Shown piece after piece: positions 13,300-34,863 of a DNA stretch of 35,139 nt. The position numbers and the translations under genes are program-made. The notes below the pieces were generated by a model, which made no database searches, was not told the origin of the DNA, and saw only the letters and a program-made list of their open reading frames with translations. This DNA comes from Campylobacteraceae bacterium (GTDB taxonomy: Bacteria; Campylobacterota; Campylobacteria; Campylobacterales; Campylobacteraceae): the NCBI GenBank assembly GCA_031276365.1, contig JAISNG010000110.1:1-35139 (forward strand), read 5' to 3'. The first letter of the stretch is position 1. Each line of letters begins with the position of its first letter.

Positions 13300-14390
13300 T
13301 GCGCCGCCTCGTATTGTAGGTTCAATGATGTTATTTCATAGAATTCGCTCGCTTGCGCGATTTGGTTTTCTATAGGCGTGGTGATAGTAACCCTATACAC
13401 GCCCTCTTGGTGCAATGTTTTATACAGATAAGACAAATTTACATCTTCGCCAAGCGCAAATCTTGTTTTTGTCGCTTTTATTTTCGCGTCAATTTCGCTT
13501 TGGCGAGATAAATCAAGGAGTTCTATCGTTGCGTTCACCTCAAGGCTTTTTGCCTCTGCCATCTCTACGCTTACAAGGTCGGTTAGAGGTCTTACGTCCT
13601 GTCCGTTGAGAACCTCCAGCACTTTGTCGGCAATATCCACATTGTTTAACGTTTTTATGTATACAATTACTTCGCCCGCCGCGTGTTCGCTCGCCACAGC
13701 CGCCTCTTCCACGCGTCCATCGCTGCTCAACGCCCAATATTGGTATGCGCGCCCGCTTCCTGCAGTGCTGAACCTATCAAGGCCAAGAATAGCCCGCTCT
13801 CTGAATGCTTCGTCGCTCTCTGCGTCCGCGCCGTTTGTATACTTTGTTGTCTGTTCTGCCTTGATTACGAAAGGTAGAGGGTTTTGGATATACTCTGTCT
13901 TTACGCTGCTCTCTTTTATATACTCGTCAAGTTCTAAAGTGCCGAATGCTTCGCTTGTCCCTGCTTCTATCGTTACGCCGTTTGCACTGTTGCCGCCGAT
14001 TAACCTCGCAATATCGCCTTTATCTGAGCGGAATATCGCGCCAAGCGGGACTGTAACGTCTACGCTTAGCACGGCTGAGAGTGTAAATTTAACCGTTGCT
14101 GTCGGTTTTACGCCTTGTATTCGCTCTACGCCGTAGAGCGCAACGATATTGTCCAAGTCTGCGCCGTTTGCGTATGGTATCAGCATGCTTAATATGCTGT
14201 CGTTTATCCTTGCTCTTAAAAGCATTTCGCGATATGCAATAGCTTCTATAATTGCACTGTATGCGTCGCTCTCAAGCAGTTCGTAATCGGGAATTTTATC
14301 GGTAAACAGCTCTTTTATTTCGTTTTTTATGTCGTTATAGTTTAGATTTTCAATCACAGCTGGATAAGGTAAATTGGATAAGAAGCTCAT
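13293..14390 (-). CDS. gpJ: Baseplate J-like protein
   Basis: 365 aa, in the W-J-I order of P2. Its start overlaps the gpW stop. Confidence 0.85.
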   Translation of the reverse strand: MSFLSNLPYPAVIENLNYNDIKNEIKELFTDKIPDYELLESDAYSAIIEAIAYREMLLRARINDSILSMLIPYANGADLDNIVALYGVERIQGVKPTATVKFTLSAVLSVDVTVPLGAIFRSDKGDIARLIGGNSANGVTIEAGTSEAFGTLELDEYIKESSVKTEYIQNPLPFVIKAEQTTKYTNGADAESDEAFRERAILGLDRFSTAGSGRAYQYWALSSDGRVEEAAVASEHAAGEVIVYIKTLNNVDIADKVLEVLNGQDVRPLTDLVSVEMAEAKSLEVNATIELLDLSRQSEIDAKIKATKTRFALGEDVNLSYLYKTLHQEGVYRVTITTPIENQIAQASEFYEITSLNLQYEAAQW

Positions 14391-14668
14391 ACCGTTGCCT
14401 CCACAGTTTCGTTATTGTCCAAAACAAGCGCGATGTTTAGCTTGCCCTCTATTAGGCTTTTTAGCCTCACTTCGCTTATTTTTACGCGCGGCTCCCATCT
14501 CTCTATCGCCTCAAACGCATAAGTCGTAAGGTCTGCGCGGAATTCATCGTCTATTTTCCTGTCCACCAACTCAAACAAGCGGCTGCCGTATTCGGGCAGC
14601 ATAACGCGGCTTCCAAGCGGCGTTATAAGAATATCTTTGATGCTCTCTTGCACGGATACGTAATACAT
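14387..14668 (-). CDS. gpW: Baseplate wedge protein gpW/gp25 family
   Basis: 93 aa. SIKDILITPLGSRVMLPEYGSRLFELVD is the GPW_gp25 signature. Confidence 0.85.
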   Translation of the reverse strand: MYYVSVQESIKDILITPLGSRVMLPEYGSRLFELVDRKIDDEFRADLTTYAFEAIERWEPRVKISEVRLKSLIEGKLNIALVLDNNETVEATV

Positions 14669-15360
14669 TAGTCTCCGCCTCCGCCGCTGTTATCCTGCGT
14701 CCTAATAGCTCCGAATTTATCATAGAGCAGTCCGCCGCTTGCCTTAACGTCGCCTGTAACGTCAAGAGGTCTATCAATCTTAAACTTTCCGCCCTCAGCT
14801 TTCATAACCGAACCGCCTGCTCCGCCGACCGTTACAGTATTACCGACAACTCCTGTTGCCGTTACGATGCCATCTACCGTTACATTGCCTTTTACGCTTG
14901 TTTCAGGGCAGGTAATCTCCGCTGTGCCTGCTTTTGCGCTTATATTTTGTGCCTCAACTATTGCGCTTTTTGCAACAGTTATATTAGCGCTGCCCTCGAT
15001 GTTTATCTTTACATCGCCCGCAAATGCGGCGGTGAGTGTTTTGGTTTTTGTATCATAGGAGATAACTGTGCCGTCTGCATACTCAATTATCTCTTTACTT
15101 TCTGATGCGTCTTTAGGGACAGGAAATTTTATATAATTCAATCCTCTTAAAATAACTCCGCTGTTAATATCATTTTCGGTACTTAATACAATTACCTGCT
15201 CTAACACTTGGGCAGGAATGAAATGTATTTTATAACTGTTTGCAGCAAGCTGCAATATATGCAAAAAATCTGTAACAAGTCCGCCCGCTATTTGTACTCT
15301 CGCTTTTGTCTGATTGGCAGATACTTCGCTTATCAGCCCCGCTTCAATTAAAAAATTCAT
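14668..15360 (-). CDS. gpV: Baseplate assembly protein V / central spike
   Basis: 230 aa with an OB-fold-like N-terminus (GLISEVSANQTKARVQI..G), a beta-helical repeat region and a Gly-rich C-terminus. It sits upstream of W. Confidence 0.8.
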   Translation of the reverse strand: MNFLIEAGLISEVSANQTKARVQIAGGLVTDFLHILQLAANSYKIHFIPAQVLEQVIVLSTENDINSGVILRGLNYIKFPVPKDASESKEIIEYADGTVISYDTKTKTLTAAFAGDVKINIEGSANITVAKSAIVEAQNISAKAGTAEITCPETSVKGNVTVDGIVTATGVVGNTVTVGGAGGSVMKAEGGKFKIDRPLDVTGDVKASGGLLYDKFGAIRTQDNSGGGGD

Positions 15361-15665
15361 TTTGTCTTACCTTTTGTCATAAGACTTATAAAAATATTTC
15401 CCAAAACCACAAGCGCGTCTGTGCCAAGATAGCTTGCTATGCCTGCACACGCGATAGAAAATCTCTCCGTACTAAAAAAATAGTAAGTCATCTCAAATGT
15501 TATATAAGCAACAAACACTGACGCCAGTGTTCCTGCTGCGATTTTTTTACTTTTGGTTTTTTTATCAAGACCGTTAAAATTGGCTTTTGTGCTTAGTCCC
15601 ACAATCGCGCCTAAGAGCGCAACAATCACAAGCCATAACCATAAGTAAATTTTTTCCAAGCTCAT
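15357..15665 (-). CDS. Holin-like membrane protein
   Basis: About 3 TM helices and a basic C-terminus (MTKGKTK). It is the last gene of the lysis cassette. Start taken at MSLEKIY (ATGA overlap with the upstream stop); the maximal ORF starts at 15680. Confidence 0.5.
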   Translation of the reverse strand: MSLEKIYLWLWLVIVALLGAIVGLSTKANFNGLDKKTKSKKIAAGTLASVFVAYITFEMTYYFFSTERFSIACAGIASYLGTDALVVLGNIFISLMTKGKTK

Positions 15666-15970
15666 TTTTCGCCTTTGCATGCTTTTAGTGTGTTTTCCAA
15701 ATCTTCCGCGTAAACATATATGTTTATTTCGTCTCGGACAATATCGCTGCTATAAGGAGCTAAAATCGGGGAAGCTATACCGCAAGCCACAGGCGTTTTA
15801 ACCTCTACCGTCTTAACAACCTCCACATACTCTTTTCCCGCGCATCCTGCAAAAAACAATGTAAGCAGCGCATAAACAAACAAGGAGACAAACATCATAA
15901 ACCCCGCACAAACGATATGCTTAGTCATTTTGCTTAGCAGACTTGGTTTTTTTATGCGCTTTGCTTTCAT
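15662..15970 (-). CDS. Lipoprotein, o-spanin-like (Rz1-type)
   Basis: 102 aa. Signal peptide ending in the lipobox LFFAG|C. It is adjacent to the i-spanin-like gene. Confidence 0.55.
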   Translation of the reverse strand: MKAKRIKKPSLLSKMTKHIVCAGFMMFVSLFVYALLTLFFAGCAGKEYVEVVKTVEVKTPVACGIASPILAPYSSDIVRDEINIYVYAEDLENTLKACKGEK

Positions 15971-16023
15971 GTTTTGCTTCTTTGATTTTTTTTCTCAATA
16001 TACTGTTTGGTGTGATGTTTGGA

Positions 16024-16395
16024 TTAGGTCTCATTGTTCCGCTCCTTAAAGAATTTTTTATGCAGCTCATCTATCAAAAACAACTTTTCTTCGCACGTTT
16101 TAGCCTCTTTTAACTCTTTTTCCCATTTTTTCGCACTGTTTTTATGCTCGTTTATGAGCAAATTAACCGCTCTTTCGGTGTCTATTTTTATTTTTTCTAT
16201 TGCTTCGTTTTGGATATTAAGTTCGCGCAAAAGCAGATTCGTTTTCTGCTCTGAAAGCGCTTTCGCCTGCACGGACGCATTTAACTCTGCGCCCAAAAAT
16301 TGAATTTTTTGATTTTTCGTGTATATGATAAACGCGCAAAAAAAGAGCGCTGTAAGTGCGCTAAAAAGTACTATTTGATAGATTCTGCTTGTCAT
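16024..16395 (-). CDS. i-spanin-like (Rz-type) protein
   Basis: 123 aa with an N-terminal TM helix, then a long charged coiled coil. It is directly downstream of the endolysin gene. Confidence 0.55.
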   Translation of the reverse strand: MTSRIYQIVLFSALTALFFCAFIIYTKNQKIQFLGAELNASVQAKALSEQKTNLLLRELNIQNEAIEKIKIDTERAVNLLINEHKNSAKKWEKELKEAKTCEEKLFLIDELHKKFFKERNNET

Positions 16396-16398
16396 CTT

Positions 16399-16839
16399 TT
16401 ACCCCAGCTGCATAATCATCGCAAGCTCTTCGGCGCGTTTGGGACTGTCTTTTTGCGCCCATTTGCTCTTTAGCATCTCATACGCCGCTTCTTTATACTC
16501 GCCTTTTTCAAGCGCTTTCCACATACGCGCAAATCCTAAAAGCCCCCCCACTCCAAGTTGATAAGACATATTATAAATAACCCTTTTTCTATTTTCGCTC
16601 ATTGTTTTTATAAAAGGCTTTTTAACGTTCAATTCGCTCATTGCACATTCCAAACGATTTTTAAGGAGAAATTCCGCTTCGTTTTCAGTTATTTTATTTT
16701 CATTTTTTACCAACTCCTTCTCAAAATCGCTTAACGGCAGTTTTGTGCCGTAACCTATAGTCTTAAAACCGTTTGTGTCGTTATAAGCCGTAAGCCGTAA
16801 ACCTTCATGTCTTTTTATCATTCTTATAAGCTCAAACAT
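16399..16839 (-). CDS. Endolysin, T4-lysozyme-like (GH24)
   Basis: MFELIRMIKRHEGLRLTAYNDTNGFKTIGYG aligns with the T4 lysozyme N-terminus ([30 protein letters not shown]), including the catalytic Glu, Asp and Thr positions. GGGAGA precedes this ATG. The maximal ORF starts at 16851. Confidence 0.9.
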   Translation of the reverse strand: MFELIRMIKRHEGLRLTAYNDTNGFKTIGYGTKLPLSDFEKELVKNENKITENEAEFLLKNRLECAMSELNVKKPFIKTMSENRKRVIYNMSYQLGVGGLLGFARMWKALEKGEYKEAAYEMLKSKWAQKDSPKRAEELAMIMQLG

Positions 16840-17249
16840 CACATCTCCCATTTTTCAGCTGCGTATTTGAATAATACTTTAAGCCGTGCGCCCGCATAAA
16901 AGTTGGTATCTTGCGCGCTTATCATCTCATCACCGCTAAATTCGCGGTAACACACAATATCTTCCTCATCGTCTTTTTCCTCAAGCGACTTTAAAACTTT
17001 CAACATAAAAACGCGCAAATCCTGCATGCTTGTATCGCCCGCGCTTACCACGATGTCTATCTCTATATTTAAATTGTGAATCGTTGAACCGCTTGTGTCG
17101 TTGTTTGCATTATCGGCAACATCGCGAATAATGACTGCTGGCAGCTCTTCGCGGTTAAGATTTATCGCCGTCCATTCATAGACATTATTGATACCATCAA
17201 TTGCCGATAGTCTCGTTTTAATCGCATCAATAATATCTTGGCGTCTCAT
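16839..17249 (-). CDS. Head-tail connector / tail completion protein (family not resolved)
   Basis: About 136 aa, between the connector genes and the lysis cassette. Start taken at MRRQDIID (ATGA overlap with the upstream small ORF). An alternative ATG is at 17264. Confidence 0.45.
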   Translation of the reverse strand: MRRQDIIDAIKTRLSAIDGINNVYEWTAINLNREELPAVIIRDVADNANNDTSGSTIHNLNIEIDIVVSAGDTSMQDLRVFMLKVLKSLEEKDDEEDIVCYREFSGDEMISAQDTNFYAGARLKVLFKYAAEKWEM

Positions 17250-17365
17250 TTCTTTACTCTGCATCTTTGGAGATGTGGATTTCCGCCTGCCCCGCGATGA
17301 CGCAGTATCGCTTGCGCGGGAATGACGGAAAGGGCGAGGATTTGCGCATTCTTTTGCAACGTCAT
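17246..17365 (-). CDS. Small ORF (39 aa), translationally coupled at both ends
   Basis: MTLQKNAQILALSVIPAQAILRHRGAGGNPHLQRCRVKK. Its ATG overlaps the TGA of the 106-aa gene, and its TGA overlaps the ATG of MRRQD. It fills an otherwise unexplained ~100-nt GC-rich gap. Confidence 0.3.
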   Translation of the reverse strand: MTLQKNAQILALSVIPAQAILRHRGAGGNPHLQRCRVKK

Positions 17366-17682
17366 TTGAGTCTATCCTCGCTAACGTATAGAGTTGTTGT
17401 TCCGTATATTGTCGGAGTTTTATCCACGATATAAAACTCTTTGCCGCGAACCGTAACCTTGTCGTTTACGCGCACCTGCGCAACGTCCGCACTCAAAACT
17501 TCCAAAAACTGAGAACTTGCCTCAACGGCACTTATGCCCTCAAGGACGCTCTCGCTCTTTTGCGTTAGAACAACATTGACATCAATCTCGCCGTAACTCC
17601 CAACAAAACGGGCGCTCTCGCCCGCTTCGCCGCTCTCTAACGCCGCTTTAATGTCTTTTATAAGCAAGTCAATAAGACTCAT
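17362..17682 (-). CDS. Head-tail adaptor / head closure-type protein
   Basis: 106 aa. Its position after the capsid gene and its size are typical of HK97-type connector proteins. I saw no decisive motif. Confidence 0.45.
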   Translation of the reverse strand: MSLIDLLIKDIKAALESGEAGESARFVGSYGEIDVNVVLTQKSESVLEGISAVEASSQFLEVLSADVAQVRVNDKVTVRGKEFYIVDKTPTIYGTTTLYVSEDRLK

Positions 17683-17993
17683 TCGGCATCCTCAAAAGTT
17701 TCTACCAACTCAATCAACTCTTCGCGGGTCTCATCGCCTGCAAGCGCAATGTCAAGCTCTTTGGCTTTGGTTTTCAGCTCGTCATCGCTTAGTTTTTCAA
17801 GCGCGCGTTTTGCCTTTTTACCTTTTGATTTTACAGAAGAGGTTGATTCTATATTGACTTCCAACTCCTCATCCTCTGCTGCGTAGCCTACCGCAATAAG
17901 TTCTTTGGCTTGCACTGCGGCGACTTCATGCGTCTCCCCGACAAAAAGATTTTTACCGGGGATAGCTGTATTTACAAGAATTCTTACTCTCAT
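17679..17993 (-). CDS. Small capsid-proximal protein with HeH/SAP-like C-terminal motif
   Basis: Start at MRVRILV (ATG 17993, RBS GAGGTG). The C-terminal LSDDELKTKAKELDIALAGDETREELIELV resembles HeH/Rho-N type helix-extension-helix motifs, which are common next to phage capsid genes. Confidence 0.45.
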   Translation of the reverse strand: MRVRILVNTAIPGKNLFVGETHEVAAVQAKELIAVGYAAEDEELEVNIESTSSVKSKGKKAKRALEKLSDDELKTKAKELDIALAGDETREELIELVETFEDAE

Positions 17994-18001
17994 ATCACAC
18001 C

Positions 18002-19795
18002 TCAAATCAACGCATCGTCAATTTTTGCGAAGCTCTGCGCCCTGCGAACCAAAGCATCGTAAAACTGATTAACGGTTATCTCAACAACCGCCTCTTTTTT
18101 CTTCGCATATGGATCTACTATCAAATCAACGCCGCCCCAAAAACCGACTATCAAGTCGGCGAAATTGCCAAAAACAATACTTGAAAGATTTGCGCCTGTG
18201 CCTTTTGTAAGGTTTGCAGGGACTTGATTGCTCGTAACATACGAATAACCGTTAATCAAACCGCCGTCTCCAATGTAAAGAGGAAAGCCTGTTTCTTTGG
18301 GTGTTGTTTTTACATAACCTCTTGTCTTTGCATTAATGAGATAACGGAAAGAACCGATATCGGCGTTTTGCACAGCTATGATTGTTTCTAATTCTACAAG
18401 GTCTTTGAATGTCGGAGCCGCGCCGTTTGCGCCAAGAGCTACCAATCCTATACCGGTTGTATTTCTTATACCCGTAGGAGTATTGCCCGTACCGTCGGCG
18501 TTCAACAAGTTCCAATCAATCTTGAGTGTAATCTGTGTTAGAAGGTCGTTTTGAATGAATTGTTCAACATTTAAAGCTGACTGCAAGATAAGACGCTTGC
18601 TGTAAGGCACTGAACCGCCGATACGTTTAGGCGACATGGATTTTTGTCCGAAAGTGATTTCACTGTCCGTAATAGCCCCTATCTCGCTCAAGTCATAAGC
18701 AGTTGAGCTTGTAAGCTGGACAGGGATATCTATATCGCCGCTAAGCCCTGATAAAATAGTCGCATACGGTAAAACTGCCGAACGGTTGCGAAGCAGCTCT
18801 ATAAAGCTCTCGACTTTCAGGTCGGAAGGAACAATGTTTGAACCTGTTGCGCCCTGACCTGTTACAGTTATTGCGCGCCCTAAAACATCAAACGGCACCA
18901 AAATACCCTGTGCTTTGACACCCGTTTTTTTCTGCGCTTCAGATGAAATTTCATACTCAAAACTCGCCTCGTCCTGCGCTTTCTTGTTTGTAGGGTCGGA
19001 AAGCGCGCGTAAAACTCTAAGCAAACTATACTGCTTCAACTCTTTTTCTTCCAAGCCGATAAAACCTGCTTTCGCGTCAATGGGCGCGCCCGCTTTGAAT
19101 GTATCAAGCACTTCGGCGCGGAACTCGTCCACGCTTTTACTCTCGCGGATAGCTTTCGCCGCCGCATCTTGTTTGCCAAATTGTGCGCCGATAGCGATAA
19201 TCTCACTAACGCGCTCCTGCTCTTTAGCCCTCGCCTCATTTTGTAGGGCAACTACATCAATCTCTTTGTCCATCTTTTCTTCCTTATAAAAGTCTAAATT
19301 TCGTCCCACGCCCACAGAATTATCCGCAGGCACCGCCACACTGCTAATCTCCAAAGGCTGCCATTTGGTAACAGTCCAAACATCTTCATTATCGCGTTTG
19401 CCTGTTATGTTTGCTTCTATAACAATGTAACCTACGCTTATCTTCTTTCGGATGCCATCTTTTACGTCGTTATAGATTTGCACGGCAAGAGGGTTATTTT
19501 TGGAAAATCTCACCTCTGCTTTGCCTCTGCTGTCTTGTATCCACGCCTTTTCTACCACTCCGATTTGCGCTCTTGTATCGTGGTCAGCCAAAAGCGGCGC
19601 GGCGTCGTTTAACCTTGTCAGGTCTACGGCATCGGGCTGATGGCTTAATACCTCATAGCCATACCATCGCAAATATGGCTCTTCTGATGAGAAACTAAGC
19701 TCAACGCTCATTTTTTCATCATCTAAAGCCCTTATGCTGCAATCGCCAAAAGCGCATCTATCTTGTTTTTGACCTACAATTTTGTCTTTGCTCAT
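18002..19795 (-). CDS. Fused prohead protease (HK97/S78 family) - scaffold linker - major capsid protein (HK97 fold)
   Basis: 597 aa. The N-terminal ~170 aa are protease-like (LLADHD...KISVGY...VAVPAD). A charged helical linker follows. The C-terminal ~330 aa are HK97-type capsid (SNIVPSDL..., GGSVPYSKRL..., FGNFADLIVGFWGGVDLIVDPY). Confidence 0.85.
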   Translation of the reverse strand: MSKDKIVGQKQDRCAFGDCSIRALDDEKMSVELSFSSEEPYLRWYGYEVLSHQPDAVDLTRLNDAAPLLADHDTRAQIGVVEKAWIQDSRGKAEVRFSKNNPLAVQIYNDVKDGIRKKISVGYIVIEANITGKRDNEDVWTVTKWQPLEISSVAVPADNSVGVGRNLDFYKEEKMDKEIDVVALQNEARAKEQERVSEIIAIGAQFGKQDAAAKAIRESKSVDEFRAEVLDTFKAGAPIDAKAGFIGLEEKELKQYSLLRVLRALSDPTNKKAQDEASFEYEISSEAQKKTGVKAQGILVPFDVLGRAITVTGQGATGSNIVPSDLKVESFIELLRNRSAVLPYATILSGLSGDIDIPVQLTSSTAYDLSEIGAITDSEITFGQKSMSPKRIGGSVPYSKRLILQSALNVEQFIQNDLLTQITLKIDWNLLNADGTGNTPTGIRNTTGIGLVALGANGAAPTFKDLVELETIIAVQNADIGSFRYLINAKTRGYVKTTPKETGFPLYIGDGGLINGYSYVTSNQVPANLTKGTGANLSSIVFGNFADLIVGFWGGVDLIVDPYAKKKEAVVEITVNQFYDALVRRAQSFAKIDDALI

Positions 19796-21270
19796 TTATT
19801 GTCTCCTTTGTTGTTGCCTTGTATGGAAGCAAGCATTTGAAATATCTCTACATCGTTTGCTATCGTTATGCCCATTTGTTCGCGCAAATCTTGGTCTCGT
19901 TTAATAGCCTCATAAACATCTTCAAGGTCGTAACCCATTTCACTCGCAACCATAGAGGGGGCTTTTATGCCTGCTTTCATGGCTAAGATATTGGCTGTAA
20001 TATCTTTTTGCGGGTCTACCCACGCCCAGCGGCGCGGCATGAAGAATGGTTTGTGAAGTTCATCAAACTTGCTTAGCGGCAGAGGAACGGCTTGTGTCAG
20101 CAAAGCCATTTGCAGCCATTCCTTGTAAACTTCATTGACAAATTCCTCAATAAACCAGCTCTGAAGATTCATCCACGCTTCGCGTTCATCCAAAACGCCC
20201 GCGCGGATAGAACTGAAGTTATAGCTCTCAAGGTCGTTTGAAAGATATGCGTAGCTTACATCAAGCCCGCTCGCGATACTCCTAAGCACCGCTTTTTCAA
20301 ACTCGGCAAAAGCCGTATTGGGGTGAGATGGATCTACGACTTTCACATCCCACCCGTCAGGGAGTTTTTGCGCCATACCCGGCGTTATCTCGTCTATAGC
20401 GTCTCCATTTGGGGCGGTATCGTCTCCGATATAATCCTCTCCCGCAGGAGATGTATAAAAAACGCCCTTAGAAGCTGAAACGCGGGCGCTCACAAGCTCC
20501 GCCTCTTCGTATGCACCCATCATTTTTAACTTCGTAACAGCGGCATGAACCCACGGCATACCGCGCGCCTGAGAAATGCGGTCGGGCAGAAAGATATGGA
20601 GTATCTCGTTTGCGGGAATGCGGATATATTCGTTTTGGAGTGCGTATAGAGTTTCGGAAGGGTGGTATTTTGTAAGATGGTAAGCGACAGGCTTGCCGTA
20701 AATATCATACTCTATGCCCATTTTGATGTTTCGTTTGTAGTCGTTGAGATTTTCATTCAGGTGGTCTGCTTCAATAAGCTGAAGTTTAAAGCCAAAGTAG
20801 TTATCATTAGCGCGGATTTTGCGTATAATCACTTCACCGTCAATCGCAGTATTAGACACAACCGCGGTACACAAAGAGCGAAAAGAGTATTTGCCGCTTA
20901 CATCGCAGTTGCCTTTCTTGCTCCACTCCCAAAAAGCGTTTTCAATAGTGTCATTTGCCTCTTTATCCTGCGTTCCGTCAGATTTTACAACCTTAGACTG
21001 GAACATAATACCGTTTGGGCCTATGATATTTGAGCCGACCATACGTTTAAATTTCTTCACATAGTCGTTATTTCTCACCAAATCGCGCGAACGGGCGCGG
21101 ACTTTTGAGAGGTTAATCATAATCAAAACGTCCGCGGAAGATTTACCGCCGCTCCAATTAAACAGCAAATCACTCTCTTTGCCGGCATCATAATTGCGTA
21201 CTTTGACGGCGTGGACGGTTTTTTGTGTTGGCGCGGGGCGGAATTTGCGGAAAAAGTCAAAAAGTTTCAA
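19792..21270 (-). CDS. Portal protein, lambda gpB family
   Basis: 492 aa. RNYDAGKESDLLFNWSG...SADVL...VRARSRDLVRNNDYVKKF...NIIGPNGI matches the lambda-family portal N-terminal signature. ATGA overlaps with both neighbours. Confidence 0.9.
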   Translation of the reverse strand: MKLFDFFRKFRPAPTQKTVHAVKVRNYDAGKESDLLFNWSGGKSSADVLIMINLSKVRARSRDLVRNNDYVKKFKRMVGSNIIGPNGIMFQSKVVKSDGTQDKEANDTIENAFWEWSKKGNCDVSGKYSFRSLCTAVVSNTAIDGEVIIRKIRANDNYFGFKLQLIEADHLNENLNDYKRNIKMGIEYDIYGKPVAYHLTKYHPSETLYALQNEYIRIPANEILHIFLPDRISQARGMPWVHAAVTKLKMMGAYEEAELVSARVSASKGVFYTSPAGEDYIGDDTAPNGDAIDEITPGMAQKLPDGWDVKVVDPSHPNTAFAEFEKAVLRSIASGLDVSYAYLSNDLESYNFSSIRAGVLDEREAWMNLQSWFIEEFVNEVYKEWLQMALLTQAVPLPLSKFDELHKPFFMPRRWAWVDPQKDITANILAMKAGIKAPSMVASEMGYDLEDVYEAIKRDQDLREQMGITIANDVEIFQMLASIQGNNKGDNK

Positions 21271-21741: not shown

Positions 21742-22308
21742 ATGTTTGAAATAAAAAAAATGTTGCAAGTTATTGCTTATCTTTTATCTCTCAATAATGG
21801 CAAAATGAACTTCTTGAAGTTAATGAAAGAACTTTATTTGATAGATAGAGAGTCTATAGCTGAAAGGGATACATCAATATCTGGCGATGTATATTTTAGC
21901 CTGCCTCATGGACCTGTATTGAGCGCAACAAAAAATCTTCTGGATGATTTAAAATTGGGCAAGACGGATAGACATAATCCTTTAAATGATTTTTTGGATG
22001 CTGAAAAAAGCAATAGGTACAATAATATTTACGATATAGTTCTTAAAAAAGTTCCTGAATATGACCTTTTAAGCGAAAAAGACAAAGAATATATAGAGAA
22101 AATATCAAAACAATTCAAAGACTATTCGCCTAAAAAAATAAAAGAATACACACATGAACTTCCGGAATGGACAGATCCAAACGGCAGTAATATCAAAATC
22201 AGATTTCAAGATATCATGAGAGCTTTGGGTAAAAGTGAGGATGAGATTTTAACTGCAAAACAGGAATATGAGCAAATAATAAACCTCAGTAGATATATTG
22301 GGGTATAG
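21742..22308 (+). CDS. Panacea-domain (DUF4065, SocA/PanA-like) antitoxin-type protein
   Basis: 188 aa. KMLQVIAYLLSL..GKMNFLKLMKELYLIDRESIAERDTSISGDVYFSLPHGPVLSATKNLLD matches the DUF4065 core (LKL.KLLYL.DR....G.PI.G..Y.A...GPV.S). RBS AAAGGAAC. An extended -10, TGTTATTAT, lies upstream. Confidence 0.75.
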   Translation: MFEIKKMLQVIAYLLSLNNGKMNFLKLMKELYLIDRESIAERDTSISGDVYFSLPHGPVLSATKNLLDDLKLGKTDRHNPLNDFLDAEKSNRYNNIYDIVLKKVPEYDLLSEKDKEYIEKISKQFKDYSPKKIKEYTHELPEWTDPNGSNIKIRFQDIMRALGKSEDEILTAKQEYEQIINLSRYIGV

Positions 22309-22310
22309 TT

Positions 22311-22742
22311 GTGGATTTTAATGGTTGTTGTTTTTTTGCATCTGATGAACCAAACGTAAATTTCCCGCATTTTATAGTAATAATATCTTCAAGCAATCCT
22401 GAAGGAAATGCCCTTCTTGTGCCTATCTCTTCCATAAAATTTGAAGCGACAGGCGCTTATAAATATAAGGGTAAGCCTTGCAAGTACTATGATGACGCAT
22501 GTGTTTTGGAGCAAACAGACATAGTAACCGACAACGAGGAACAAGTTCTAAATAAGCCATCTTTTATGAGATACGAGTGGGCAAAAGAGATAAATGTAAA
22601 TACGGTTTTGATAAAAAAATTTTCCAAAATATATGACTACAAGTGTAAAATATCACAAAATGTTTTAGGTAAAATACAAAATGGCGCGAAAAACTCAAAA
22701 GAGTTAAAACCTGCATACAAAAAATATTTTGAATATTTTTAA
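22311..22742 (+). CDS. Hypothetical protein; candidate cognate toxin (PanT position) of unrecognised family
   Basis: 143-aa ORF with a GTG start 2 nt after the PanA stop. HFIVIISSSNPEGNALLVPISSIK loosely resembles the MazF/PemK core (RP.LV.S......vvvvP.TS). I recognise no family. Confidence 0.5.
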   Translation: MDFNGCCFFASDEPNVNFPHFIVIISSSNPEGNALLVPISSIKFEATGAYKYKGKPCKYYDDACVLEQTDIVTDNEEQVLNKPSFMRYEWAKEINVNTVLIKKFSKIYDYKCKISQNVLGKIQNGAKNSKELKPAYKKYFEYF

Positions 22743-29980: not shown

Positions 29981-30164
29981 TTTTAACTTTACGCTCCTTG
30001 TATCTTTGTATAAATGGTTCCCACGCTTTAATCGGTATACCTCTATCGCGAAGCTCAAAAAGTTTTAAAGCAGTTGGAAGTTGTTTGGCTTCTTTTATTT
30101 TTTTGATACTATCGTTGGTATATCCATACTCTATAAGTATGCGTTGAATTTTTTCCCATTTCAT
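29970..30164 (-). CDS. Cro-like early regulator (first gene of the leftward early operon)
   Basis: 64 aa, divergent from the repressor gene across a 114-nt promoter region. It shows weak Cro/YdaS-like features (LPTALKLFELRDRGIPIKAW). Confidence 0.45.
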   Translation of the reverse strand: MKWEKIQRILIEYGYTNDSIKKIKEAKQLPTALKLFELRDRGIPIKAWEPFIQRYKERKVKNDN

Positions 30165-30202
30165 AAGCGAATGATAATTAAATTCCCTTAAAATAACTTA
30201 AA

Positions 30203-30210
30203 ATTATGCA
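30203..30210 (-). promoter_or_regulatory. Candidate -10 (TGCATAAT) of the leftward early promoter
   Basis: Reverse complement of attatgca, 39 nt upstream of the Cro-like ATG. Confidence 0.3.
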
Positions 30211-30221
30211 ATAAGAGAATT

Positions 30222-30247
30222 ATTTTCCCTAATTTTTGTGATAGAAT
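30222..30247 (+). promoter_or_regulatory. Repressor-gene promoter with extended -10 (TGATAGAAT)
   Basis: ATTTTCCCTAATTTTTGTGATAGAAT, 32 nt upstream of the repressor ATG (RBS AAGGA). It differs from 5066-5090 by one T indel and two substitutions. Confidence 0.5.
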
Positions 30248-30278
30248 TAGCTATTTTTAAATGAATTAAAGGATTTAG

Positions 30279-31067
30279 ATGAATAGTTTTAGAAAAGATT
30301 TTTTAAGTGAAAAAATACAAGAAACCTATGGAACAAATGCAAAATTTGTGGAAGCGCTGCGCAAAAATGGAATAGAAAAAACTGAAGATGCTATTAAAAA
30401 ATGGCGACAAGGCAATAGCGTACCAAAAGTAGGTGAACTTAAAGCTATATCAAGAACTCTTGGGATAGAAATACAAGAGTTATTTGAAGAACCCATTTTT
30501 GACGGCATAACTAAAGCAATAAAACAACTTGGCGAACCTGCAAGAAATATAAATAAATATTTTTCAGATATATCTAAAAAAATCACATCATTTACAGAAG
30601 GATTAAATTTTCACAATAAAGAAGTTGCAAATAATGACAATGGGAGGTTTGATATAAATATAATTTGCATACCAAAACTTTCTATCACTGCAAGTGCAGG
30701 AAATGGAAATAACCTCGAAAGTATCGATAAATTTGAAATGGAAGGCATATTGATAAGCGACGCAGATACGCTTAGACTCGATAATAATAAAAATTTAAAA
30801 GCTATAAAAGTAGATGGATATAGTATGATACCTGTACTTTTACCGGATAGTTGGGTAATTTTTAACGATGATGGAAATTTTAGAGGAGATGGGATCTATG
30901 TATTGAACTGGGACAATACACTTATGGTAAAAATTATACAACTTGCTCCAAACGGCAAAATAGAGATTATATCGGCAAACAAAGAATATAAAAGTTATAT
31001 TGTTGATTTAGAGGATTCACAAATAGCATTTAAAATAGTTGGCAGAGTTATAAAATCTATAATATAA
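30279..31067 (+). CDS. cI: CI-like phage repressor (N-terminal HTH plus C-terminal S24 LexA-type autopeptidase)
   Basis: 262 aa with an HTH region (AKFVEALRKNGIEKTEDAIKKWRQGNSVP). The S24 Ser motif is VDGYSMIPVL and the Lys motif is LMVKII. Confidence 0.85.
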   Translation: MNSFRKDFLSEKIQETYGTNAKFVEALRKNGIEKTEDAIKKWRQGNSVPKVGELKAISRTLGIEIQELFEEPIFDGITKAIKQLGEPARNINKYFSDISKKITSFTEGLNFHNKEVANNDNGRFDINIICIPKLSITASAGNGNNLESIDKFEMEGILISDADTLRLDNNKNLKAIKVDGYSMIPVLLPDSWVIFNDDGNFRGDGIYVLNWDNTLMVKIIQLAPNGKIEIISANKEYKSYIVDLEDSQIAFKIVGRVIKSII

Positions 31068-31075
31068 GACATAAT

Positions 31076-32011
31076 ATGAAGTGGGTAATAACTATAATTA
31101 TAGTTCTGATTGCATGTGGTTTGGTGTTTTACATTTTTGATAAAAAAAGAACAGAGAAAAAGCTTGGCAAAAAAATAACTTTTGATGAGTATGCAGAATA
31201 TGTAAAAATTGAGCAAAAGCAACAAAAAGAAGATATGGATAGAAAAGAGGAAGAAAGAGCGAAAAGAATATACGACAACGAGCTTAAAAATATTCGTGAT
31301 GTTTATAAAAAAATAACAGTTAAAAGAAACTTTGAAAGCATTACTTACGATATTCAACTTAAAAAAAGAGAACCCATAAAGCAACATACTGTATTTGTCC
31401 AAAAATACCCAAGGAAAGGCATACAAAGCCTACTTAAGCAATTTAAAAATGATTTTAGCAGCGACGATGATTATTATATGTATGGATCTACTCAAAACAA
31501 TCTTATTGGTTTACTCACAGAAAGGCTTGTAACGCATATTTTTGAGCAATATGCAGAGGATGGTACTAAAATAAGTTCCGATTGGGAAGTATTTTCACGT
31601 TTTCCCGTCGTAAAAGTAACAACGACTATTAAAAAAAATGGGATTGTTAAAACTGTCGCCACGACTACTAATTTTGTAAGCTATATGTCCATAAAAGATG
31701 CTATATATAAATCCTCAATTTCTGTTATTGGCAGTGAGATAGACAACCAAAATCCAAACGATTTTTATGCAGAGGCATTCTTGCAATTTAACACTGAAAG
31801 CAATGTAGATACTAATGAAATATTGGAATTATTTGAACAAGGAATGTCTTTTAATATGTATTTTGTCGGCGGCGCAAGCTATGAACAAATGCTGCAAACA
31901 AATATAACGGCGGAATACGGTAAGCTTAATCCAACAACGCACTATATTATCAATCCTATAGCCAAATCTCTCGACGCGCCAACTTTTGTAAAAAAGGTTT
32001 TAATTGGGTAA
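31076..32011 (+). CDS. Membrane-anchored protein of unknown function (repressor-operon cargo)
   Basis: 311 aa with an N-terminal TM helix (WVITIIIVLIACGLVFYIF), a K/E-rich coiled-coil linker and a ~200-aa C-terminal domain. No family recognised. Confidence 0.6.
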   Translation: MKWVITIIIVLIACGLVFYIFDKKRTEKKLGKKITFDEYAEYVKIEQKQQKEDMDRKEEERAKRIYDNELKNIRDVYKKITVKRNFESITYDIQLKKREPIKQHTVFVQKYPRKGIQSLLKQFKNDFSSDDDYYMYGSTQNNLIGLLTERLVTHIFEQYAEDGTKISSDWEVFSRFPVVKVTTTIKKNGIVKTVATTTNFVSYMSIKDAIYKSSISVIGSEIDNQNPNDFYAEAFLQFNTESNVDTNEILELFEQGMSFNMYFVGGASYEQMLQTNITAEYGKLNPTTHYIINPIAKSLDAPTFVKKVLIG

Positions 32012-33200
32012 AAAATCTTATAAACAGACAAAAATGTTTGCAGACTACCAAAGCAGTATCAGCAATGAGAAAATCGGGCATTTCAGTTTTAAAAGTATCC
32101 ATACAGAGATAAAACACTTGATTTTGAGAGAATGTATCAAACAGTCTGCAATAGTAGCCAATTACTTTGCAAAACTTGACAAAATCCCATCAAAGAATGG
32201 GCAAATTAAAAGATACTGTTATCTTGACTTTTACGCAGGTCAGGGTATGTTTGACGATGGGCAAAACGGCTCCCCTCTGATAGCATTAGAAACCGTGAAC
32301 AAACATATGACATGCATACCTGTATCTTTTGTTTTCTGCGAAAAAGACAAAGCCTCATATGACTCGTTAAATTCAATAACGAAAGACGAAAAAAATGTTG
32401 ATTGTTTTTGCGGCGCTTGGAGAGAAAATAGCCAACAGATATTTGGCGCATTTCATGTCTCTCAATGGGGATTTGCTTTCGTTGATCCGTTTGACAATTT
32501 TAAAACCAAAGAAGAATTTGATATGTTAATTGATTTTTTTTCGCAAACGACGCTAAAAGATATGCTATTCTTTTTTAATATCCAAGCTCTAAAAAGAATG
32601 TTTACAGACTATAGACAACAAGTTCTAAATTTATTTTCAGCAACAGAGGAAGATATAGATCGCGCTGAACATTTCAGTGATGGGATATTCTCCAAATTAG
32701 TTTTGGCAAAAGCAAAAAAAATGAAAAAAAAATTTATCGACGGTGCAGCTATACCAAACAGCACAAATGACAAGTTAAATGACAGCAATGCTTTCTATAT
32801 GATGTTGGTAACAAACAGTTCAGGAGTTATTTTTCCTTTTTATGAGGCTTATGCAAAAACTTTGGAACAGTACAAAAAATGCCAGCAAACAAGCCTTTTT
32901 CCCCAAATCAGCACAGGAGACAAGATACTATCTATATTGAGTAGTAGTTTCATAGGCTTGTCCGATTTATCCAAACAGCTGTTAAGCGAATTTGTTGGGT
33001 GGAAAGAGACAAATTCCATAGACATGTTACCAACAAAAGACAATATCTGCAATGCTATAAATAACCTCATAAAAGATGGTAGGGTACAAATACATTTTAC
33101 GGAAGATGGGAATAAATATGTAGATAAAAGCGGGCTGTTAAGAAAAACTGCATTTTCAAGCAATAGAGCCTTAGAAAATATCGCTATTGCAAAGCTATAG
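32004..33200 (+). CDS. tcmP: Three-Cys-motif partner protein TcmP-like (Rossmann/SAM-MTase-like motifs)
   Basis: 398 aa. HTEIKHLILRECI, YCYLDFYAGQGMF..GQNGSPLIALE and FAFVDPFD match my recollection of the TcmP family. It is adjacent to a DUF5131 gene, as that family is defined. The TTG start at 32004 has AAGG upstream; an alternative ATG is at 32034. Confidence 0.65.
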   Translation: MGKKSYKQTKMFADYQSSISNEKIGHFSFKSIHTEIKHLILRECIKQSAIVANYFAKLDKIPSKNGQIKRYCYLDFYAGQGMFDDGQNGSPLIALETVNKHMTCIPVSFVFCEKDKASYDSLNSITKDEKNVDCFCGAWRENSQQIFGAFHVSQWGFAFVDPFDNFKTKEEFDMLIDFFSQTTLKDMLFFFNIQALKRMFTDYRQQVLNLFSATEEDIDRAEHFSDGIFSKLVLAKAKKMKKKFIDGAAIPNSTNDKLNDSNAFYMMLVTNSSGVIFPFYEAYAKTLEQYKKCQQTSLFPQISTGDKILSILSSSFIGLSDLSKQLLSEFVGWKETNSIDMLPTKDNICNAINNLIKDGRVQIHFTEDGNKYVDKSGLLRKTAFSSNRALENIAIAKL

Positions 33201-33900
33201 GCATCTCATCCCACACTCTGCCGTCAAGCATCTTCCCTGCGGCTTTTTTGTTAAATCCTCCCCACTGCTTGAAAAAGAAAGGGATTGCTTGAGAGACACA
33301 TTTATCTCTTATATTTCTCACCCACTCTTGTTTGACGGCTCTTGCCCCTGCGCCGCTTTCTCCACCGACTATTACCCAGTCTATACTCTCAAGCGGCAGA
33401 TTTGGTATATCTGACAGTAAAGGCTCTATTGATAAAAATTTTATCTTTGATGGGACTTTTGCCAAGTCGTCTATCCTGTAAGTATGTTTTTGCGACTCTA
33501 CCGTTACGCCCATCCATATATTATCGCTCCATGTAAGTTTTAGTGATAACTTCGTCAGCCTTTCGGAGCGTTTGGTCAAGACTTGAAATATATGTCTCTC
33601 TGCCTTGTTCATGACTTCAAATACCTTGGTGATATGCTCATCAGATACGCTGTCATGAAATATATCGCTCATGCTGCATACGAAAATGATTTGAGGTTTT
33701 TTCCATTTCAGCGGTTCGTCCAAAACATCAGGGTGAAACATCACATTAAAGCCGTTTTTATATCGCGGATTGCCCATAGCCTGAAGTCTTTTAGCCATCT
33801 TTTCGGCATAGCAATTTACACAGCCTGTACTTATCTTACTGCAGCCTGTTATTGGATTCCAACTGCTCCCAGTCCATTCTATGTGTGATTTGAGCGCCAT
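33184..33900 (-). CDS. DUF5131 / phage Gp37-Gp68 family protein (three-Cys-motif protein)
   Basis: 238 aa. IEWTGSSWNPITGCSKISTGCVNCYAE, then VIVGGESG and FFFKQWGG, are the hallmarks of PF07505. Confidence 0.8.
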   Translation of the reverse strand: MALKSHIEWTGSSWNPITGCSKISTGCVNCYAEKMAKRLQAMGNPRYKNGFNVMFHPDVLDEPLKWKKPQIIFVCSMSDIFHDSVSDEHITKVFEVMNKAERHIFQVLTKRSERLTKLSLKLTWSDNIWMGVTVESQKHTYRIDDLAKVPSKIKFLSIEPLLSDIPNLPLESIDWVIVGGESGAGARAVKQEWVRNIRDKCVSQAIPFFFKQWGGFNKKAAGKMLDGRVWDEMPIALQ

Positions 33901-33976
33901 CTAACTCTCCATTTTATAATAATTTTATCTATCTCAAGCTTAATTTTCAATCTAAACATTCTGTTCCCCTTCTCCT

Positions 33977-33990
33977 ATTATAGCACAAAA
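33977..33990 (-). promoter_or_regulatory. Promoter of the DUF5131 gene (TTTTGTGCTATAAT, extended -10)
   Basis: This 14-mer is identical to 5077-5090. It lies about 77 nt upstream of the ATG at 33900. Confidence 0.5.
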
Positions 33991-33995
33991 AATAT

Positions 33996-34052
33996 AAATG
34001 ATAATATTATTCCCTAATTAAGCTATGTTTAAAGAGAATAATATTATCATTT
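33996..34052. repeat. Perfect 17-bp inverted repeat (AAATGATAATATTATTC / GAATAATATTATCATTT) with a 23-nt spacer
   Basis: Arms at 33996-34012 and 34036-34052. They lie between divergent promoters: a minus-strand -10 at 33977-33985 and a plus-strand TATAAT at 34053-34058. Confidence 0.75.
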
Positions 34053-34076
34053 TATAATAAATCAAAGGAGACACCC

Positions 34077-34217
34077 GTGACCACTTACACAAAAATGCTT
34101 GTCGGCAATCGCGCTGACTACAGCGTAAAATGGTTTCAAATCATCAAAGGCGGTTATATCGCATATTGGGACGGCAAAAAGTGGGTCGTCGTAGATGTCG
34201 CAAGGCGGACAAAATGA
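34077..34217 (+). CDS. Small hypothetical protein (46 aa)
   Basis: GTG start 6 nt after AAAGGAG. Sequence MTTYTKMLVGNRADYSVKWFQIIKGGYIAYWDGKKWVVVDVARRTK. ATGA overlap with the next ORF. Confidence 0.45.
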   Translation: MTTYTKMLVGNRADYSVKWFQIIKGGYIAYWDGKKWVVVDVARRTK

Positions 34218-34444: not shown

Positions 34445-34641
34445 TCTTTTAACGTCTGCATTCATTGCGGACGTTAAAGGGTTTACCCTTAAATAGCCAT
34501 GAAATTGATTGGCGCGGGATTTAGCGGTTTGACCATACAAAACCGTTTGGTTTTAGCGTTGATAGCATAACAGCGGTAGAAAAATTTATGCTTAATTTCC
34601 ATTATTATAGATTATAATATCATATAAAAATCGGAGTAAAT

Positions 34642-34863
34642 ATGAGTGAAAACATAGTCAAACAGACATGCAAAGAGTTGGGGATAACGCAAAAAGAGCT
34701 GGCGGAAATGTTGGATATACCGCAGCCAACACTTGCAAGATGGCAGGCAGGAGATATTACCAAGATGGCACAAAAAGCGTTAGAGTTGTTGCTTGAAAAC
34801 AAGCAATTAAAAGCTAAGTTGCAAAAAATCAAAGAAGCACAAAATATACTCAACAACTTATAA
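34642..34863 (+). CDS. XRE-family helix-turn-helix regulator
   Basis: 73 aa. The HTH is CKELGITQKELAEMLDIPQPTLARWQAG. TATAAT and GGAG lie upstream. Confidence 0.7.
   Translation: MSENIVKQTCKELGITQKELAEMLDIPQPTLARWQAGDITKMAQKALELLLENKQLKAKLQKIKEAQNILNNL

Follow-up and report, generated by a model that had tools for sequence, protein, structure and literature searches.

A TcmP/DUF5131 gene pair in the repressor operon of a probable Campylobacterota phage: a candidate two-enzyme cassette for nucleic acid modification

Introduction

TcmP and DUF5131 are two uncharacterised protein families, the genes of which occur widely, from phages and prophages to transposons and defence islands. What such a pair may do is the question raised by a 35,139-nucleotide (nt) stretch of DNA from a Campylobacteraceae bacterium (contig JAISNG010000110.1; the whole stretch is referred to here as the window), in which a TcmP gene lies behind a phage repressor and meets a convergent DUF5131 gene. 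A first-pass annotation of this stretch had joined the two genes with an intervening gene for a 311-amino acid (aa) membrane protein into one candidate module for DNA modification or exclusion. The pair itself is already catalogued, as TIGR04474/PF07505 and as the PADLOC candidates PDC-M30 and PDC-M41, and the window is a further, divergent example of it; the reading of the pair as a defence or DNA-modification system is likewise already contained in PADLOC under PDC-M30/M41, where it still stands as a proposal. The PDC systems are 145 predicted candidates, chosen as embedded in BREX, DISARM or Type I restriction–modification (RM) systems (bioRxiv 10.1101/2024.01.29.577857). In the present analysis the problem was narrowed to a two-gene unit, composed of a predicted RlmJ-like TcmP with a domain of DNA-binding type and a partner related to spore photoproduct lyase (SPL), and carried as a repressor-linked cassette.

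Conservation and extent of the gene pair

TcmP (398 aa, with a TTG start) is encoded at positions 32004–33200 on the plus strand and DUF5131 (Gp37/Gp68; 238 aa) at 33184–33900 on the minus strand, with a tail-to-tail overlap of 17 nt (33184–33200). Both family assignments held in the searches. TcmP scored 62.6 bits (E = 5e-17) against TIGR04474 in NCBIfam, where the curated cutoff is 53, and DUF5131 matched PF07505 over its full length (328 bits against a gathering score of 28.9, E = 4e-98; residues 4–234 on profile positions 1–243). In PADLOC, DUF5131 matched PDC-M30B (2e-113) and also PDC-M41B, and TcmP matched PDC-M30A (7e-9). The four open reading frames (ORFs) described earlier, the gap of 8 nt between the repressor stop and the start of the 311-aa ORF and the convergent 3′ overlap of 17 nt agreed with the ORF coordinates, and the quoted motifs (YLDFYAGQG, GSPLIAL, FVDPFD, GCSKISTGCVNCY and FFFKQWGG) were all found in the translations. 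The stop of the 311-aa ORF is overlapped by 8 nt by the start of TcmP. As the segment KKSxKQT, which lies upstream of the first methionine of TcmP, is kept in homologues of 43–69% identity, the TTG at 32004 is probably the true start.

The pairing was examined in two surveys, one of IMG/VR with a TcmP profile (40 loci, 39 complete) and one of genomes with a narrower TcmP alignment that covers the window's own clade only (16 loci, 15 complete). The results showed that TcmP adjoins DUF5131 or a related radical-S-adenosylmethionine (radical-SAM) gene in 37 of the 39 complete IMG/VR loci, about half with each type of partner, and that these pairs are mostly co-directional, five being convergent. 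At the genomic loci, TcmP adjoins its partner in 14 of the 15 complete cases, convergently and with an overlap of 14–21 nt; the hosts of this clade are Gastranaerophilales/Melainabacteria, Campylobacterales, Syntrophaceae, other deltaproteobacterial metagenome-assembled genomes and Cloacimonadota. Convergent overlaps in Gordonia phages are 4 and 11 nt. Combined, TcmP stands beside a radical-SAM gene of the SPL-related group (DUF5131 or PA0069/Rv2578c-like) in 51 of 54 complete loci, which bears out the earlier description of TcmP/DUF5131 as a conserved pair. The window resembles the TIGR04474/PF07505 pair in having a TcmP above cutoff, a full-length DUF5131 and adjacency of the two genes, and differs from it in belonging to a divergent clade that is almost always convergent with its partner. 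That clade is also rare, with only two close relatives of the window's TcmP among 5.8e9 proteins. In some IMG/VR loci, the space between TcmP and the radical-SAM gene holds either a further TcmP-like ORF of shorter length or a TcmP in two parts (L019, 7077–7961; L015, 5860–6837).

The reverse dependence looks different. Among cultured phages, DUF5131 is present in 179 records and TcmP in about 13, and the pairing set against these counts implies that TcmP depends on a radical-SAM partner while DUF5131 does not depend on TcmP. The solo DUF5131 proteins are longer (about 290–340 aa) and occur, for example, in Squirty, prophiGD53-3, RR1-A and PhiCh1 (L045–L048), where the gene lies amid early or replication genes, sometimes near DNA methylases, and TcmP is absent.

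The two close relatives of the window's TcmP were located on contigs L001 and L002. In L001, a sister prophage, the gene order is an S24 repressor (26% identity), an unrelated 315-aa protein, a KilA-N protein, TcmP (69%) and a convergent DUF5131 (82%), and TcmP and DUF5131 overlap by 17 nt, as in the window; in L002, the convergent pair adjoins a MatE transporter, and its overlap also falls in the range of 14–21 nt. The only extended DNA similarity between the window and L001 in this region covers 32010–33930 (75.6% over 1939 nt). This block starts 6 nt inside the TcmP ORF and stops 30 nt upstream of the DUF5131 start codon, and its extent is taken as that of the putative mobile two-gene cassette. 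Both cassette genes are under purifying selection: the ratio of nonsynonymous to synonymous substitution rates (dN/dS) was estimated at about 0.12 in TcmP and 0.09 in DUF5131, although dS is close to saturation. The 311-aa gene, which had been counted as a third member of the module, lies outside the conserved block; it is an ORFan, is replaced in L001, and was absent from L001, L002 and every other TcmP locus surveyed, so that its co-occurrence with the pair was seen nowhere outside the window. For these reasons it is regarded as separate cargo. By comparison of these loci, the functional unit appears to be the two genes, self-contained and horizontally mobile.

Fold and conserved residues of TcmP

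An AlphaFold 2 (AF2) model of TcmP built from 57 homologues reached a predicted local distance difference test (pLDDT) score of 89 and a predicted template modelling (pTM) score of 0.89. Foldseek with this model against the PDB showed that the top 14 matches are Escherichia coli RlmJ and one DUF519 protein (best E = 3e-9), with TM-scores of 0.35–0.54 and identities of 14–16% to the RlmJ structures. The search of PDB sequences with the TcmP profile also led to RlmJ (E = 0.0016) with motif I only aligned; YvDlyAGkG is paired with YLDTHAGAG, and GSPLIA is shared. Since hhalign of the TcmP profile with RlmJ likewise covered motif I alone, the relationship between TcmP and RlmJ rests on Foldseek and on the order of the motifs. 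TcmP did not match the RlmJ/DUF519 family model (PF04378) in Pfam at E ≤ 0.1, and the fold search of BFVD returned generic methyltransferases only.

Among the 57 homologues, D65, A68, G69, G71, G79, S80, P81, I83 and D151 are invariant and K27 and P152 nearly so. D65-x-x-A68-G69-x-G71 corresponds to motif I of RlmJ, and D151-P152 to motif IV (DPPY; D164 of RlmJ). By motif order, TcmP retains equivalents of RlmJ K18, of motif I (Y-x-D-x-x-A-G-x-G), of the GSPLIA helix and of the motif IV aspartate D164, and E103, which is invariant within the window's clade, aligns with RlmJ E118. The first-pass annotation was thus right about its two motifs and about the methyltransferase-like character of TcmP. 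Its comparison with C5 DNA methyltransferases was not upheld, the nearest fold being that of RlmJ, an N6-adenine rRNA methyltransferase. TcmP differs from RlmJ in that motif IV is a DPF variant and not DPPY, in that the helical insert of about 45 residues is missing, and in having a C-terminal winged helix-turn-helix (wHTH)-like domain and a radical-SAM partner, both of which RlmJ lacks. The C-terminal 100 residues are predicted as helix-helix-helix-strand-strand, and in 6 of the 57 homologues the C-terminus is matched by the PF22560 'GMT-like wHTH' model. A few homologues weakly match the RsmD-like Cons_hypoth95. Taken together, the model indicates that TcmP is composed of an RlmJ-like (N6-methyladenine, m6A-type) class I SAM-methyltransferase fold, predicted to cover about residues 1–290, and a C-terminal winged-helix-like domain.

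Affiliation of DUF5131

Three cysteines of DUF5131 (C20, C27 and C30; GCSKISTGCVNC) are invariant across 43 TcmP-partner proteins. DUF5131 was matched by rSAM_mob_pairA of NCBIfam at E = 3e-27, under the equivalog cutoff, and RadicalSAM.org holds DUF5131 as a radical-SAM subgroup, Megacluster-5-2, listed beside spore photoproduct lyase (5-3). The alternative partners of TcmP match PF04055 (8e-14) as well as the PA0069, Rv2578c, rSAM_mob_pairB and SPL models, the latter all far under the family cutoffs. SPL and the PA0069/Rv2578c proteins are alike with DUF5131 in their RadicalSAM.org megacluster, and with the alternative partners in the models matched, while DUF5131 differs from them by its CX6CX2C spacing. 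These family and motif matches point to DUF5131 as a three-cysteine protein of the radical-SAM superfamily, in the SPL-related group.

Genomic context of the pair

The repressor in front of the window's cassette (30279–31067, plus strand) is of the S24 (CI) type, with a PF00717 match at 5e-14, a weak helix-turn-helix (HTH) match and matches to phrog_4 and phrog_6201. It is the first gene of a rightward lysogeny operon and is context rather than part of the cassette. The same order was found in cultured phages. In Gordonia phage Easley, the immunity repressor gp40 is followed after a gap of 3 nt by TcmP (gp39) and the convergent DUF5131 (gp38), and then by a metalloprotease, an HTH protein and a tyrosine integrase; in Gordonia phage Fairfaxidum, which has another repressor and a serine integrase, the repressor gp44 is followed by TcmP (gp43) and the convergent DUF5131 (gp42). 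With gaps of 3–17 nt, the order repressor, TcmP, radical-SAM gene is shared by Easley, Fairfaxidum and the IMG/VR loci L017, L042 and L023; in L017 and L042 an S24 repressor is directly 5′ of TcmP. An XRE-type HTH gene is directly 5′ of TcmP in L023, L026 and L036 and one gene further away in L033, and an ImmA/IrrE–zinc-ribbon pair takes this place at six further loci, so that the genes upstream of TcmP are frequently HTH, S24 or M78 regulators. Across several lineages that are not related to each other, the cassette is thus linked to the repressor of a prophage.

Accessory genes directly after, and apparently cotranscribed with, the repressor are likewise found in lambda (cI-rexA-rexB) and in Gordonia phage CarolAnn (gp45-gp44-gp43), where the repressor-cotranscribed genes were shown to confer defence (PMC6426606). 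By analogy, CarolAnn may be taken as a precedent for the slot, and not for the TcmP and DUF5131 proteins. In PADLOC the window proteins showed no sequence relation to proteins of the RexA/RexB type, and the window pair consists of predicted enzymes, not of an ion channel and a sensor.

Defence genes also adjoin the pair. Its neighbours are Type I RM genes in L051 and L052 and a Type IIG enzyme in L060; in L055 it lies with Tn7/Mu-like transposition genes, and it was also found beside Type III RM, GmrSD and Mrr genes. On Sinorhizobium meliloti pSymA (L068, 1240000–1280000), positions 14221–19882 hold DUF5131, TcmP (PDC-M30A) and a convergent short TcmP-like gene (PDC-M41A), the last of which is downstream of Hna (PDC-S28), a validated defence gene. 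SMa2243 (TcmP) has been reported to be co-regulated with hna (PMC12445080). On pSymA, one DUF5131 is shared by two TcmP paralogues. This pair beside Hna matches the PDC-M30 models, as does the adjacent pair of the window. The PDC-M30 and PDC-M41 systems were defined inside BREX, DISARM or Type I RM systems, whereas the window pair lies in a prophage lysogeny operon and is convergent with a 3′ overlap.

Proposed regulation of the cassette

No terminator-like structure was found on the plus strand between 31067 and 33200, in keeping with the earlier remark that none follows the repressor, and TcmP appears to be translationally coupled to the repressor operon. For DUF5131, the candidate promoter TTATCA-16-TGcTATAAT (34004–33977, minus strand), accompanied by a GGAG ribosome-binding site (RBS), was located. 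In a stretch as AT-rich as this one, promoter-like matches taken together are no more frequent than chance would give (28 found, 22.7 ± 4.5 expected). The extended −10 site proposed in the first-pass annotation is nonetheless present, and its best support is that the same TGCTATAAT occurs at the equivalent position of L001.

An operator-like inverted repeat of 20 nt (33996–34052) overlaps the −35 of the candidate promoter. Its arms (33996–34015 and 34033–34052) are 95% complementary, and the core of the repeat is ATGATAATATTATTC. At the same position in L001 (10007–10057), an inverted repeat of different sequence lies beside the identical TGCTATAAT. A copy of the window repeat with three mismatches is found in the cI-cro intergenic region (30171–30185). 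The arrangement looks like operator control of the radical-SAM gene by the putative repeat. A related copy was also seen at 34611–34623, before the HTH gene at 34642.

Two small ORFs lie near this promoter. On the minus strand, an ORF of 26 aa that begins upstream of DUF5131 (ATG at 33959) and has a strong RBS was set aside, as it is not conserved in L001. Divergent from DUF5131, a 46-aa ORF (34077–34217, plus strand; VTTYTKMLVGNRADY...) has a protein-level match in L001 at 10092–10223.

Proposed function and alternatives

The evidence at hand comprises the family memberships, the fold of TcmP, the conserved residues of catalytic type, the near-obligate pairing, the bounds of the cassette, the purifying selection and the genomic contexts. 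Our preferred reading, tentative and with confidence just short of even, is that the pair forms a SAM-dependent cassette of two enzymes, which is expressed in the lysogen and acts in an immunity-type role by modifying nucleic acid, most likely DNA. TcmP would recognise a nucleic-acid target, most likely DNA, flip a base into its DPF (DPPY-like) pocket and possibly N-methylate it, and DUF5131 would perform a radical step on the substrate of TcmP. Between them, the two proteins would either introduce a modified base in the lysogen or act on one, and the mark may serve immunity, either as an epigenetic mark or by telling resident from invading DNA. The transcript that encodes the repressor would also supply TcmP, and DUF5131 would be expressed from a convergent promoter of its own, flanked by the operator-like repeat. 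We infer the SAM and iron–sulfur chemistry, the DNA substrate, the expression in the lysogen and the biological role.

A bolder form of this proposal, which on balance is unlikely, would make the pair a new class of DNA-directed immunity, in which TcmP presents a flipped base to an SPL-group radical-SAM enzyme that creates a novel modification or lesion, and temperate phages of several phyla co-express the pair with the repressor, marking resident DNA or disabling superinfecting DNA. Radical-SAM chemistry on DNA beyond spore photoproduct repair would be new enzymology, and a use of this chemistry in defence or epigenetic marking would in addition amount to a new principle of immunity in prokaryotes. 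The pair is present in two cultivable phages of Gordonia terrae, Easley and Fairfaxidum, and on S. meliloti pSymA, so that the question is open to direct test; the value of the window lies in a sharper hypothesis and in a pointer to cultivable phages and hosts of the same architecture.

Several observations weigh against a lysogen-expressed DNA-modifying cassette. Expression in the lysogen is read from gene order. As motif IV of TcmP is DPF and not DPPY, it is uncertain that a methyl group is transferred; RlmJ, to which the modelled TcmP is nearest in structure, acts on rRNA and not on DNA; and TcmP matches PDC-M30A weakly (7e-9) and no Pfam family at E ≤ 0.1. The cysteine spacing of DUF5131 (CX6CX2C) is not the canonical radical-SAM CX3CX2C, and neither its single sequence nor a 43-sequence profile found a structure among PDB sequences. 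Because DUF5131 is often solo, its basic activity would need no TcmP and need not be defensive. PDC-M30 itself is explicitly classed as a predicted candidate (bioRxiv 10.1101/2024.01.29.577857). Moreover, the literature search on DUF5131, TcmP, PF07505, TIGR04474, COG4422 and PF22560 returned no functional study, consistent with the earlier statement that no function is established for the pair. Lastly, several genomic loci have housekeeping neighbours, for example purH or an AMP-binding enzyme.

Three other explanations were weighed. Convergent genes with a promoter each are common among Type II RM pairs, and the arrangement in the window resembles that of such pairs. A strict RM-like or abortive defence, in which methylation by TcmP would protect resident DNA and radical chemistry of DUF5131 would damage unmarked phage DNA, would also fit the embedding of PDC-M30/M41 candidates in methylation-based systems, the RM genes and Hna that adjoin the pair, and the proven defence system of CarolAnn in the slot behind the repressor. 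However, DUF5131 is often alone and TcmP almost never lacks a radical-SAM partner; this dependency is the opposite of what a toxin and its protector would show, and it speaks against this explanation. In addition, both genes follow the repressor in one operon in L017 and L042, and neither a nuclease domain (Pfam, NCBIfam, PADLOC and PHROG, all locus proteins) nor another effector domain was found. We regard an RM-like system as improbable.

Alternatively, the pair might be cargo for DNA repair or damage tolerance, DUF5131 repairing UV or desiccation lesions in the manner of SPL, TcmP being a damage-recognition or accessory subunit, and the benefit being resistance to stress and not to phage. 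The radical-SAM neighbourhood of DUF5131 and the alternative partners (SPL, PA0069 and Rv2578c, 'DNA repair photolyase') is in line with this, as are the solo DUF5131 genes amid recombination and replication genes, including those of haloarchaeal and cyanobacterial viruses. Rv2734 of Mycobacterium tuberculosis, a DUF5131 homologue by the label of the phiE125 record, groups with recA and recX among mitomycin-induced genes (PMC5057432), and together with the solo DUF5131 genes it hints at a role of the DUF5131 family in DNA repair or DNA metabolism. Nevertheless, the family membership of Rv2734 comes from that record label, the invariant residues of SAM-binding and catalytic type would be unexpected in a mere recognition subunit, and it is RM and defence genes, not repair genes, that are enriched in the neighbourhood of the pair. 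A repair cassette is quite improbable.

Very improbable, finally, is an RNA-modifying pair, in which TcmP would, as RlmJ does, methylate an adenine, here of rRNA or tRNA, and a second modification would come from its radical-SAM partner, with altered translation as the outcome (for example, protection from anticodon nucleases, ribosome-targeting toxins or antibiotics): although the nearest solved structures are all RlmJ, the 23S m6A2030 methyltransferase, a few TcmPs weakly match the RsmD-like model, and the known radical-SAM modifiers of nucleic acid (RlmN/Cfr and MiaB) act on RNA, the partner belongs to a DNA-acting, SPL-related radical-SAM group, TcmP carries the predicted C-terminal wHTH domain, and the genomic company consists of DNA methylases and restriction genes.

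The 311-aa protein

The gene between the repressor and TcmP (31076–32011, plus strand) encodes a membrane-anchored ORFan that stands outside the cassette as an independent cargo gene. It has an N-terminal hydrophobic (transmembrane, TM) helix and long predicted helices, and no family was found above threshold in Pfam, NCBIfam, PHROG or PADLOC; the earlier description, a TM helix at the N-terminus and no recognised family, was accurate. Among 5.8e9 proteins it matched itself alone, and the full HMMER search gave three weak partial relatives. Its AF2 model reached a pLDDT of 65, and Foldseek with this model returned nothing at E < 0.1.

Parts of the protein were seen elsewhere. The N-terminal TM helix and charged helix are common to the protein P0124 (L069, 5001–5648). 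In contigs of Mu-like phages, the gene for P0124 lies 23 nt behind an HTH-S24 repressor, and this recurrence suggests that the 311-aa protein may be an independent membrane protein of exclusion type. Its C-terminal domain (141–310) is common to the soluble proteins P0122 and P0123 (224–226 aa). The 311-aa protein is a mosaic and may belong to a family of membrane proteins, encoded first after the repressor, with swappable C-terminal domains. A PD-(D/E)xK nuclease-like C-terminal domain was considered and rejected: the model is poor, no fold was matched, and the E...D...ExR residues of P0122 and P0123, from which the idea arose, are replaced in the 311-aa protein.

The carrier phage and its cargo slot

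The minus strand of the window carries genes for a tape measure protein, a tail fibre, a capsid–protease fusion, a portal, the large terminase and DnaB, and the contig lacks the integrase end. As the large terminase shares 71% identity with its counterpart in Sulfurimonas phage SNW-1, the window most likely derives from a temperate phage of a Campylobacterota host; the carrier is P2-like. Megablast of positions 30000–34200 against phages gave no match.

SNW-1 (L050) has the same layout as the window, and downstream of its repressor-position gene, on the plus strand, carries a thermonuclease and a TIGR04255 protein. Since SNW-1 has other genes at the same place, the slot behind the repressor is a variable cargo site. 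L001 and SNW-1 together agree with the earlier view of this slot, which is in addition a recurrent home of the TcmP/radical-SAM pair. The repressor-position gene of SNW-1 (207 aa) is annotated as 'DNA polymerase', a possible misannotation; together with the two cargo genes behind it, it falls within L050 31889–34488.

The segment had also been described as visibly AT-rich. The GC fraction is 0.30–0.35 across 30–33 kb and 0.44–0.49 in the structural genes, so that the claim stands relative to the latter; it does not set the segment apart from other early regions, which are as AT-rich, and the kilobase with DUF5131 has a GC fraction of 0.39. A second cargo insertion may lie at 21742–22742: within the structural operon on the minus strand, the portal gene is separated from the terminase gene by an AT-rich island with a GC fraction of about 0.31, which consists of two plus-strand ORFs of 188 aa (phrog_1281) and 143 aa.

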